Shown in pieces: positions 32,061-57,817 of a stretch of 64,000 nucleotides of DNA (position 1 is its first letter; the number at the start of each line of letters is the position of its first letter). Source of the stretch: Alphaproteobacteria bacterium (GTDB taxonomy: Bacteria > Pseudomonadota > Alphaproteobacteria > JAPOUT01 > G958296285); contig OZ242373.1 in NCBI GenBank assembly GCA_965209065.1, forward strand, positions 646,202 to 710,201, given 5' to 3'. A program made the position numbers and the translations under genes. A model generated the notes under the pieces. The model was not told the DNA's origin. It ran no database searches and was given only the letters and a program-made list of their open reading frames with translations.

Positions 32061-35000
32061 TTACCGCTTCCTTATGATAAACACCGTATCATAGTTTGAC
32101 CTGTTCTTATTGCTGAAAGAAAAACATATACGGCTTAAATTATAACTAGCGTAATTTGCACGGCAATGCCCCAAAGCACTCGATAAAGGATGCATCCTTG
32201 CTTCCGCCTCACTTATCGATAAAGGCGCACCAGACGCACTTTTGCCGCGCTTATTGTTTTTAGAAAACTTCCAGTAATAAATATCCGAGCCGTCTCTCGC
32301 ATGCCGACTGCCGCAAAGAGGCTTGACCAGCTTTTCTAAATCAACCGGCTTGCTCCTCGCTACCGGACGGCAGAACAAAGTCACGTCTTTCCTCTTTATT
32401 TTTGTGATGTCTTTTCCAAAAATAATATCTTTAATCCCATCCTCCAATAGAGCATTGCTTGTGCTAGAGGTCATTCTCGTGCCCTTTTGGTTGCTCGCGT
32501 AAATGATAATCACGTCTTCCGTATCGCCAATGACCGTAATGCCCTTGCCTGCCGCAAGAGGCGGCACACCACTTTTGCTGTTAAGCGGCGCGATAGGCAA
32601 ATCAACCGGAACATGAATAATAATTGTGATAACCGACAACTCTAAAGGAAGCACCCCCGGCGATGTGGGCGGTGTGGTAGGAGGGAGTATCGGCGGTATC
32701 GGCGGGCGTATGACCGGACCTCTTATGTGAAAAAAGCCATCGGTCGCCCACAGGCTCACATCATTGGGGTTGCGGTAGGTTCTATAAAAAATCGTGGTAT
32801 CACCGACAAAGGTCGCAGGCGACAAAGAAGGAAAAGCATCAGCTTTCTGAAAAAGCTGAATACCGCCATTCGCGATGATTGTTGTGTTGGGAAGAAACGT
32901 AATCTTCCCTATATTATTACCGCTGTTTCCTGCTCCCGCGACAAATCTAAGCGCGCCCGAACCAATGTTGAGCGAGCCTTCTACCTCAATATCATTCGTA
33001 GCATTGACCGTAAGCTCCTGATTGCTTGGAGTTGCGGCAGCAATGCGGGAGAATAAAATAACCTTCCTGCCCGAAAGTGTAATCTGTGCCGTTGTTGAAA
33101 AACTAATACTTCCTGTCGCAAGCAAGGCTAGGTCATGCTCGCCGTTATCTATATCTGCCCCAAGGAATATATCCCCATTATTAAAAGCGTTTATAATGAA
33201 ATCACCATTAATGCCATCAATGCTCGCGGCTGTTAGGGAAACAGAATTAGCGCTAATGCCTCTTAAATTGGCAGGAAAAATAATGCTTCCTGTGGTTTCC
33301 AAAGACAAAGAATAATTTGCCATATTCAAAATGCCTTGACTGTCTATCTCATGACCAAATTGGAACAACAAGTCATCTGTGATGATAATATCATCGTCTC
33401 CAGCATCCAAGATGACATCTGCGCCAAATTCTCCATTGCCATCCTGCGCCCACGCACCAATGAAATTCGGATTGACTTCATCTTTATAATAAATTGTTAC
33501 TTCGCCAACAAAAGAAGACGGCGCAGCTGACGGAAAAGGCGTTTTATCTTGCCGCAAAGCGATGCCAGCATTCGCGGTTAAAATCGTCGACGGCATAAAA
33601 ATGATTTCGCCCTCATTGTTGGCGCCATCTCCTGCTGTAATGTCCATCGCACCTGAGCCAACATCAAGCTGAGCGTTTAGCGTCACGTCCCCTTTCGCCT
33701 CTATCCTAAGCGCTTGATTGCTGGGCGTAGAAGCGGTTGCCGCTGTTAGCGTAATGTCATTGGCAATAAGGTTTGTATCAACCGCGGTAGAGAAATTAAT
33801 CGCGCCAGCAACCGCATTCACCACTAAATCACCCGAGCCAATGTTAATGCCTAAAGGAAATAAAATATCAATGGTTTGCGCGGTAACGGTTAATTTTTTA
33901 TCACTCAACTGCAACCAATCTGGAAAAGCAAAGAGCGCACCTGTGAAATTAACCGAAAGCTCATTTCTTATAAATTCCACCTGAACGGCAGGCGAGGGAG
34001 TAAATAACTCGTTTACGTTTAGAGTCAAATTACCCGAGCCAATATCAAACAAGCCTGCTAGAGTTAATCTGCCTGTTGCCGTGATGGTTACGTTTTGATT
34101 ATTTGCTGTCGGCTCAAACGAAGTGAGTGAGATGTTTGTTGCTATTATTGTGGTTGGAGCATCTTTGTCGAAACTAACCGCGCTATTTTGTGCATTGGCG
34201 GTTAAGTTGCCGCTTGCTAGGTCGAGTGTCCCCGACAAAATAATATCAGCAGTTAGCCGTGAGGTAATAGTCAAGTCTCCATTCTTTCGCCCAACCCAAT
34301 CAGGAATAATGGTATCTTCTTGTCCGTCTAGAAACAGATTCGTATTCCCTCTAGTAAAAGTGGGCGAGCCCTCGAATGTATGCGTTATTAGGGTTAAATC
34401 ATTGCTAGTGCTTATACTAAAGAAGCCGACAAGCGATAAAACCCCTTCTGTTTCTATGGTTAAATCTTGCCCGCTTGCAAGTGGCGGTTGCGTGGATGTC
34501 AAAAAGACATCGGCGCCTTGTATGGTGGTGCTAGCACCTGTAGCAAAATTAATTGCGTCGTTAGCACTTAGGGTCAAGTTATGTCGCGTGGCGATACCTG
34601 TTTGGATGGATTCGGCTTTTAACGTGCCGCCGCCGATATTTATATTGTATGCTTGAATACTGATATCTTGGAGAAAAACAACATTGCCTGTAGCAGAAAG
34701 ACCTAAATTCCCTCGTCCTATGCCTCCATTATGTCCTCTAAAGTCCATATTATAAGCGTTGATTGTTAGGTCGCCGGTGGTTGCGACAAAGGAGGCAGAA
34801 GCCTCTAAAATATTATAGATAGCATCAAGGGTATCACTTTTTGTCTGTCTAGCGATTAGGCTAATGCTCCCCGCGTTAACGAAGATATTACTTTCTATGG
34901 TGATAGCATTTCCCTCTACAACAAAATGACCTAAGCCTAAATTAATATTGCTAGATATCACAATGCCCGATTGTGCATCGGTATTACTATTACGTATCGT

Positions 35001-57817: not shown

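Follow-up and report, generated by a model that had tools for sequence, protein, structure and literature searches.

A tandem cluster of three giant TpsA-type exoprotein genes with an unlinked transporter in a small alphaproteobacterial genome

We analysed a 64,000-nt stretch of an alphaproteobacterial contig (OZ242373.1, positions 646,202–710,201; this whole stretch is hereafter the window), which carries three tandem genes for large exoproteins (B, C and D) and a fourth such gene (A) at a distance from them. Domain profiles and a structure model identify all four products as TpsA proteins, the passengers of two-partner secretion (TPS; type Vb), and place B, C and D in the branch of HMW1, EtpA and HxuA. 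We consider it likely that B, C and D are paralogous TpsA adhesins of this branch, exported by a shared TpsB transporter that is encoded elsewhere. The secretion mechanism itself is textbook; what is notable is the size of the proteins, their novel repeats, the diversification in tandem and the consistently unlinked transporter. The four minus-strand open reading frames (ORFs) that an earlier sequence-only reading had reported are present, and its description of TpsA-type exoproteins in tandem was borne out:

1230–3470, minus strand: gene A, 746-aa independent TpsA with signal peptide, TPS domain, short beta-rich region, Pro/Gln-rich linker and basic tail
32061–36422, minus strand: gene B, 1,453-aa TpsA paralogue with signal peptide, TPS domain, beta-helix and a unique C-terminal tail of ~240 aa
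36530–47812, minus strand: gene C, 3,760-aa TpsA with TTG start and zero cysteines, identical to database protein P0186
47945–57817, minus strand: gene D, 3,290-aa TpsA (3,277 aa from GTG 57778, the start used in the public record)
47009–47680, minus strand: TPS secretion domain of C, aa 45–268 (PF05860, TIGR01901, EtpA profile match, AlphaFold model)
57182–57634 (D), 35727–36236 (B) and 2673–3377 (A), minus strand: Pfam-matched TPS segments (PF05860)
47267–47566, minus strand: gene-conversion core in C, with its partner in D at 57236–57535 (98% nucleotide identity)

Secretion domains, paralogy and gene organization

Profile searches with the N-terminal 400 aa of each protein revealed the TPS domain in all four. 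PF05860 scored 48.2, 50.5, 57.4 and 49.9 bits against a curated cut-off of 33.5 bits, and TIGR01901 scored 42–59 bits against a cut-off of 29.1 bits. In full-length Pfam scans the domain was found in B and C and missed in A and D; since the N-terminal 400 aa of the latter two score 48–50 bits, these misses reflect a filter effect on long repetitive proteins, which are better scanned piecewise. Ahead of the domain, each protein has a basic n-region, a 12-aa hydrophobic stretch (mean Kyte-Doolittle 2.4–2.7) and an AxA-like site preceding 'APSGGR'. The order of signal-peptide-like segment and TPS domain that had been read from the letters is thus confirmed by inspection and by two profiles, and the PF05860 check that the sequence-only reading had proposed was passed by all four N-termini (48–57 bits), with TIGR01901 in agreement.

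A profile search of the PDB with the TPS profile of the family matched EtpA (E = 1.2e-33), and HxuA and HMW1 were also matched. The AlphaFold model of the N-terminal 796 aa of C (aa 5–800) had a predicted local distance difference test (pLDDT) score of 83.8, which exceeded 90 over aa 30–280, and all eight Foldseek matches of this model at E <= 1e-3 were EtpA, HxuA or HMW1. HpmA structures were reached by Foldseek only at E >= 0.26, and none was among the PDB sequence matches. A cytolysin of the ShlA/HpmA type, with a haemolysin-type TPS domain and a passenger of ~1,600 aa, was considered and rejected on the HpmA Foldseek values.

Comparison of the proteins with each other showed 37% identity between C and D over 3,217 aa, rising to 52% over the first 841 aa, and 56% identity between B and D over the N-terminal 371 aa. 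By these alignments B, C and D are genuine paralogues, in agreement with the three-gene paralogous cluster described before. The same reading had counted A as a fourth copy, but A resembles B and C only over ~79 aa of the TPS core (44–46% identity) and D over 127 aa (35%), and has nothing like B, C or D beyond that core. We therefore regard A as a separate TpsA and not as a paralogue belonging to the cluster.

The two largest genes share a tract over the TPS core (~aa 52–205 of C) with 95–98% nucleotide identity. Third codon positions of C and D are 88–98% identical in this tract and 26–85% identical elsewhere, and those of C and B are 59–71% identical in the same core. This pattern of nucleotide identity over the transporter-recognition domain is that of gene conversion between C and D, and it is consistent with the use of one shared TpsB.

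C and D are uninterrupted ORFs of 11.3 and 9.9 kb, and the spacers of the cluster are as AT-rich as had been stated (28% GC, 107–191 nt). The maximal ORF of B extends to 36527, and only for this ORF is it true, as the sequence-only reading had it, that the third gene starts straight after the stop of C; the likely start is GTG 36422, inferred from the ribosome-binding site AAGGAG before it, or ATG 36392. Each spacer contains a conserved TTGAAA-N16/17-TAnnAT element together with a Shine-Dalgarno sequence. Such an element in front of every gene suggests that B, C and D are transcribed separately, and agreement with the consensus suggests that the elements are functional. Homology of B to C and D stops at B aa ~1246. 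A pseudogene was rejected as an explanation, because B continues in a single frame and no remnants lie in other frames. The cluster is bounded on both sides by tRNA genes, and tRNAs were all that an Rfam scan of the window detected:

57910–57937, minus strand: promoter-like element TTGAAA-N16-TAATAT upstream of D (consensus match only)
47859–47887 (C) and 36466–36494 (B), minus strand: elements homologous to that of D (consensus matches only)
31927–32003, minus strand: tRNA-Met, downstream boundary of the cluster
58009–58212: tRNA-Pro (plus strand) and tRNA-Arg (minus strand), upstream boundary of the cluster

Passenger repeats and C-terminal anchors

Beyond the TPS domain, the passengers contain two types of repeat, and D and most related proteins end in a pair of cysteines:

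44990–46820 (C) and 55418–56801 (equivalent in D), minus strand: array of ~84-aa 'INQTSGxLTLxxPxLNI' beta-helix repeats, modelled as a continuous beta-helix
38961–42593, minus strand: tandem 546-nt (182-aa) repeats in C with ~62-aa 'LTRGxLxITWxGTxAxxPxWA' sub-repeats, copies 61–94% identical at the DNA level
47948–47977, minus strand: C-terminal Cys loop of D, 'CFSVNSNIC' followed by the final Pro (C-x7-C), predicted HMW1-type periplasmic anchor

The ~84-aa repeats follow the TPS domain and the 182-aa units occupy the middle of C; no Pfam model matched either type in scans of the window proteins. An extended beta-helical passenger is predicted by the structure model. In a search of 1.84 billion proteins, a profile of the 182-aa repeat matched no more than 143 representatives. 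Many of these are giants (up to 7,821 aa), and 32 of the 45 top matches carry the TPS core at the N-terminus. Close homologues of the TPS region are scarce as well: a single one reaches 57% identity, and no other exceeds 45%, most lying at 27–37%. A scan of a genome collection with the TPS domain revealed no relatives, and a scan of JGI metagenomes with the family alignment revealed nothing. With this family, the TpsA repertoire gains two types of beta-helix repeat that were not catalogued before.

Two shorter in-frame 15-nt tandem repeats were also observed, 'VPRDS' (2.3 copies, 36286–36320) just after the signal peptide of B, and 'TSAQD' (3.4 copies, 40179–40228) within one 182-aa unit of C; slippage at these repeats could produce length polymorphism, not on/off phase variation. 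Plus-strand ORFs of 177–280 aa at 38895–43532, antisense to the 546-nt repeats of C, recur at the repeat period and show no sign of being genes.

The only two cysteines of D (Cys3281 and Cys3289) lie at its extreme C-terminus, in about the last 9 residues ('SLCFSVNSNICP'), and A and B have terminal pairs of the forms C-x11-C and C-x12-C. A C-x(2-14)-C pair in the last 45 residues is present in 36 of 48 family proteins, which are otherwise poor in cysteine. The protein C, devoid of cysteine, ends ~25–30 residues short of the W...C...C terminus of the family. In HMW1, the disulfide loop remains periplasmic and locks the TpsA in the TpsB pore, and the same is expected for HxuA (PMC5422565, PMC3983070). 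Because its putative terminal loop is like that of HMW1, we infer that D is tethered to the surface; by the same analogy, C, which has lost the loop, is probably shed or only loosely held.

The unlinked transporter, related loci and alternative explanations

The window contains no detectable TpsB gene, as had been claimed. In Pfam scans, every ORF of at least 150 aa falls in another family, once those antisense to larger annotated genes are set aside; a six-frame search of the window (tblastn and profile) with TpsB probes gave no match; and the 64 kb contain no stretch of 450 nt or more without an assigned gene. The probes were derived from distant TPS relatives with an adjacent ShlB-type transporter (L082, L084), and the adjacent TpsB of these relatives served as a positive control. 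No TpsB was found within 10 kb of the TpsA genes of the family in five related loci (L001, L087, L088 and L089 are named) from at least three genome backgrounds, and precomputed Pfam calls for related loci agree with the probe profile. Since the related loci also have no adjacent TpsB, the unlinked transporter is a trait of the lineage and not a peculiarity of the window. According to a review of TPS systems (PMC5422565), the genes can also be arranged in other ways, and some TpsBs serve several TpsAs. The absence of a neighbouring TpsB, which the sequence-only reading had contrasted with the normal adjacency of the two genes, is therefore an uncommon arrangement but a documented one, and the main surprise of that reading becomes a modest one.

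The following route is proposed for the cluster. Each of B, C and D would be read from its own sigma-70-like promoter, and the pre-proteins would cross the inner membrane through Sec by means of the N-terminal signal peptide. The TPS domain would then bind the POTRA domains of a TpsB of the Omp85 type, encoded elsewhere and common to these TpsAs, and the chain would thread out and fold into a very long right-handed beta-helix, the predicted structure of the lineage-specific ~84-aa and 182-aa repeats. By analogy with HMW1, the Cys-x7-Cys loop of D would stay in the periplasm and hold the fibre fast in the pore of the TpsB, and C, having no loop, would leave the cell surface or be held loosely. 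The tandem paralogues, with passengers 25–37% identical, would provide a diversified repertoire, and gene conversion would ensure that the TPS cores of both C and D still fit a single transporter. A would be an independent small TpsA that takes the same export route.

The source contig (1,687,333 nt), on which proteins identical to the RpoB and the gene A product of the window are recorded (P0167 and P0168), is small, in line with the streamlined genome suggested before, and the RpoB encoded in the window shares 66–67% identity with those of Hyphomicrobiales and Parvibaculales (Alphaproteobacteria). Relatives with 73% RpoB identity are represented by contigs that range from 0.7 to 1.9 Mb, two of them, of 1.61 Mb (ERZ25070185 ctg137342) and 1.85 Mb (ERZ25069326 ctg78804), being recorded as circular, and a sister strain (L085) is 98.6% identical to the window over 18.9 kb. 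The loci compared, which derive from the sister strain's sample and a 1.85-Mb relative, resemble the window in carrying giant TpsA genes with no TpsB nearby: two tandem genes in L001; genes of 4,211 aa and 2,390 aa with a third, fragmented one in L087; genes of 5,753 aa and 3,965 aa beside dnaE and uvrA in L088; and a lone gene of 4,684 aa in L089. L087 and L088 belong to the sister strain's sample (ERZ25069786), L088 with similar and L087 with lower coverage, and their passengers are only 26–30% identical to those of the window. On these comparisons, the giant TpsA repertoire differs greatly between closely related genomes. That a small genome (~1.7 Mb, from an organism known only from metagenomes) spends 1.5% of its length on one array of three fibres, and that close relatives carry further arrays with the 4,211-aa and 5,753-aa genes, points to a way of life governed by attachment, whether to a host, to prey or to a particle.

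The segment at 27–60 kb is a variable hotspot bounded by tRNA genes, because both the sister strain and a relative with 73% RpoB identity differ there; in the latter, a single restriction–modification gene separates tuf from the hydrolase gene and tRNA-Thr. The restriction–modification islet at 27437–31910 (tRNA-Tyr to tRNA-Met) differs from the corresponding region of the sister strain (L085:2600–5200), with an Eco57I-like methylase, T5orf172 and GmrSD in the window and a D12 methylase and a HaeIII-type endonuclease in the sister strain; the SDR gene between the restriction–modification genes is conserved (98.2%). Another part of the sister-strain sequence (L085:1–965) carries the 3' ~50 nt of tRNA-Met and 11 nt downstream of it, ~190 nt from a phage-type integrase gene, and no full tRNA-Met was detected in these 965 nt. 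The fragment looks like an attachment-site (att) remnant of an element that had integrated where the TpsA cluster lies in the window.

Among the remaining genes of the window are those for an SSF symporter, a solute-binding protein, a CoA-transferase, mfd, recG, rpoC, rpoB, ribosomal proteins, nusG, tuf, the Eco57I-like methylase, T5orf172, SDR, GmrSD, DUF1329, a hydrolase, a hybrid histidine kinase and a Sel1 protein. A cytochrome P450 gene cut by the left edge of the window (1–1150, minus strand; haem motif FGTGPHVCLGQR) lies directly downstream of A. The DUF1329 (LolA-like) gene at 58604–59917 adjoins the TpsA locus, and its counterpart at L089:28974–30329 (51% identity), in a relative with 73% RpoB identity, lies ~5 kb from the lone TpsA gene. 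A Sel1-repeat gene (L088:9227–9766) stands directly upstream of a TpsA gene, and the Sel1 protein of the window (62630–63913) is encoded 5 kb from the cluster. This DUF1329/Sel1 neighbourhood may be conserved, or the recurrence may be coincidence.

These data bear on two alternative origins of the cluster. That it is the cargo of a recently acquired genomic island inserted at tRNA-Met, rather than part of a resident chromosomal family, would fit its position between tRNA-Met and tRNA-Pro/Arg, the tRNA-Met 3' fragment near a phage integrase gene in the sister strain, the variation of the neighbouring restriction–modification islet between strains and the presence of only a restriction–modification gene between tuf and the hydrolase gene in the 73%-RpoB relative. 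However, the window holds no integrase, no att-like duplicate of a tRNA end and no mobility genes, and a search for att sites around tRNA-Met, tRNA-Pro and tRNA-Arg returned generic tRNA-arm similarity only. The GC content of the cluster (42–50%) overlaps that of flanking genes, and the family is specific to the lineage: relatives carry members amid housekeeping genes at several further places in the chromosome, and nothing close occurs elsewhere; we regard recent acquisition as unlikely. Even less credible, and close to negligible in our view, is an assembly artefact, by which a spurious tandem duplication or wrongly collapsed repeats would have arisen when the long-read metagenome was assembled. 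The sister-strain contigs have low coverage (5.6–8x) and TpsA genes broken by probable frameshifts, and the 546-nt repeats of C reach 94% identity, but B, C and D are only 25–56% identical outside the TPS core and are all uninterrupted ORFs, and the repeat copies can be told apart (61–94% identity). In addition, an independent assembly contains a full-length orthologue of D (P0187) with 13 substitutions in 3,277 aa (99.6% identity). The divergence of the copies and this orthologue answer the concern, raised by the sequence-only reading itself, that the cluster might be an assembly duplication.

Two further alternatives concern what the proteins do and how they leave the cell. The sequence-only reading had proposed a polymorphic TpsA cassette locus, and large TPS-domain proteins in tandem would suit contact-dependent growth inhibition (CDI) of the CdiA type or a polymorphic-toxin cassette, in which C-terminal toxins vary and tandem copies act as a switching reservoir; the unique, basic, Cys-containing tail of B (~240 aa), which has no homologue, could be read in the same way. 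The proposal fails in the CDI sense, as no VENN/ELYN-type pre-toxin motif and no toxin Pfam domain were found, the C-terminal regions of C and D show homology to one another as well as to those of relatives, and the intergenic spacers (107–132 nt), which hold the promoters, leave no room for immunity genes. The TPS domain is moreover of the EtpA/HMW1 type and not of the CdiA/FHA type, with FHA repeat models below threshold, so that we hold a toxin cassette to be very unlikely. Equally improbable is export without a dedicated TpsB, that is, a lineage devoid of ShlB-type transporters whose TpsAs exit through BamA/TamA or another outer-membrane route. The lack of TpsB within 64 kb here and within 10 kb of family members at five other loci in at least three related genome backgrounds speaks for it, as does the adjacent TpsB kept by more distant TPS relatives. 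Yet the ~180 kb of DNA sampled say little about genomes of 1.6–1.9 Mb, and unlinked TpsB genes are documented (PMC5422565). The TPS core is strongly conserved (55–72% identity) and homogenised, as expected if it fits a specific POTRA partner, and a Cys-loop anchor would be pointless without a TpsB pore. If the lineage did have no ShlB-type TpsB, its giant proteins would break the 'two-partner' rule by which type Vb secretion is defined.

We therefore return to B, C and D as paralogous adhesins served by a shared TpsB encoded elsewhere. Several observations weigh against this interpretation. No TpsB was found in the window or in the related loci sampled, and the probe profile consisted of three sequences, two of them identical, so that very divergent barrels may escape it. 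The signal peptides were assessed by eye and by hydrophobicity. No binding domain was identified, and the adhesin function follows from fold and family alone. N-x-S/T sequons are more frequent in C and D than in housekeeping proteins (2.1 versus 0.44 per 100 aa), but their excess over composition-matched shuffles is weak (z = 1.4–2.1), and no N-glycosyltransferase of the HMW1C/EtpC type is present among the genes of the 64-kb window; glycosylation was dropped as a lead because composition explains most of the sequon density. The most likely role is attachment, be it to surfaces, to host cells or to other cells.

Comparison with known two-partner secretion systems

EtpA of enterotoxigenic Escherichia coli (etpBAC; 8VBA/8VBB/8CPK) resembles the window proteins beyond the TPS core, into a 'GGxxQG...WSD...GGxVE.S...LLD' segment. 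Its passenger is likewise a long repetitive beta-helix, whereas the repeat sequences of the window proteins differ from EtpA in having no Pfam model. EtpA is ~1,800 aa long (solved chain, 1,564 aa) and thus far shorter than C and D (up to 3,760 aa here). In its operon EtpA is accompanied by a TpsB (EtpB) and a glycosyltransferase (EtpC), and the cluster in the window has neither nearby.

HxuA, the haem/haemopexin-binding TpsA of Haemophilus influenzae, matches in TPS subtype and fold (4I84, 4RM6). Its solved chain of 884 residues and its expected C-terminal disulfide anchor resemble gene A. Homology between A and HxuA is confined to the TPS region. The gene hxuA is described as belonging to a haem-uptake system with hxuB and the receptor gene hxuC, whereas A sits between the P450 gene and that of the sodium:solute symporter.

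TpsAs without a TpsB of their own are known. FhaS of Bordetella is exported via FhaC, and Neisseria meningitidis has sets of TpsAs with promiscuous TpsBs; in both of these, at least one TpsA is still linked to a TpsB. The lineage of the window differs in this respect, with 0 of at least 9 giant TpsA genes sampled linked to a TpsB.

HMW1/HMW2 of non-typeable H. influenzae (hmw1ABC) share the TPS subtype with the window proteins (2ODL matches). HMW1 is ~1,500 aa long and has a cleaved pro-piece, a linked TpsB and HMW1C; in the window, no glycosyltransferase was seen and sequon enrichment was not significant. HMW1 is tethered by Cys1518/Cys1528 in its last 20 residues (PMC3983070, PMC5422565), and D and most family members end alike, whereas C has no HMW1-type anchor. 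The putatively anchored D and the anchor-less C, encoded side by side, are a natural pair for testing the HMW1-type tethering model.

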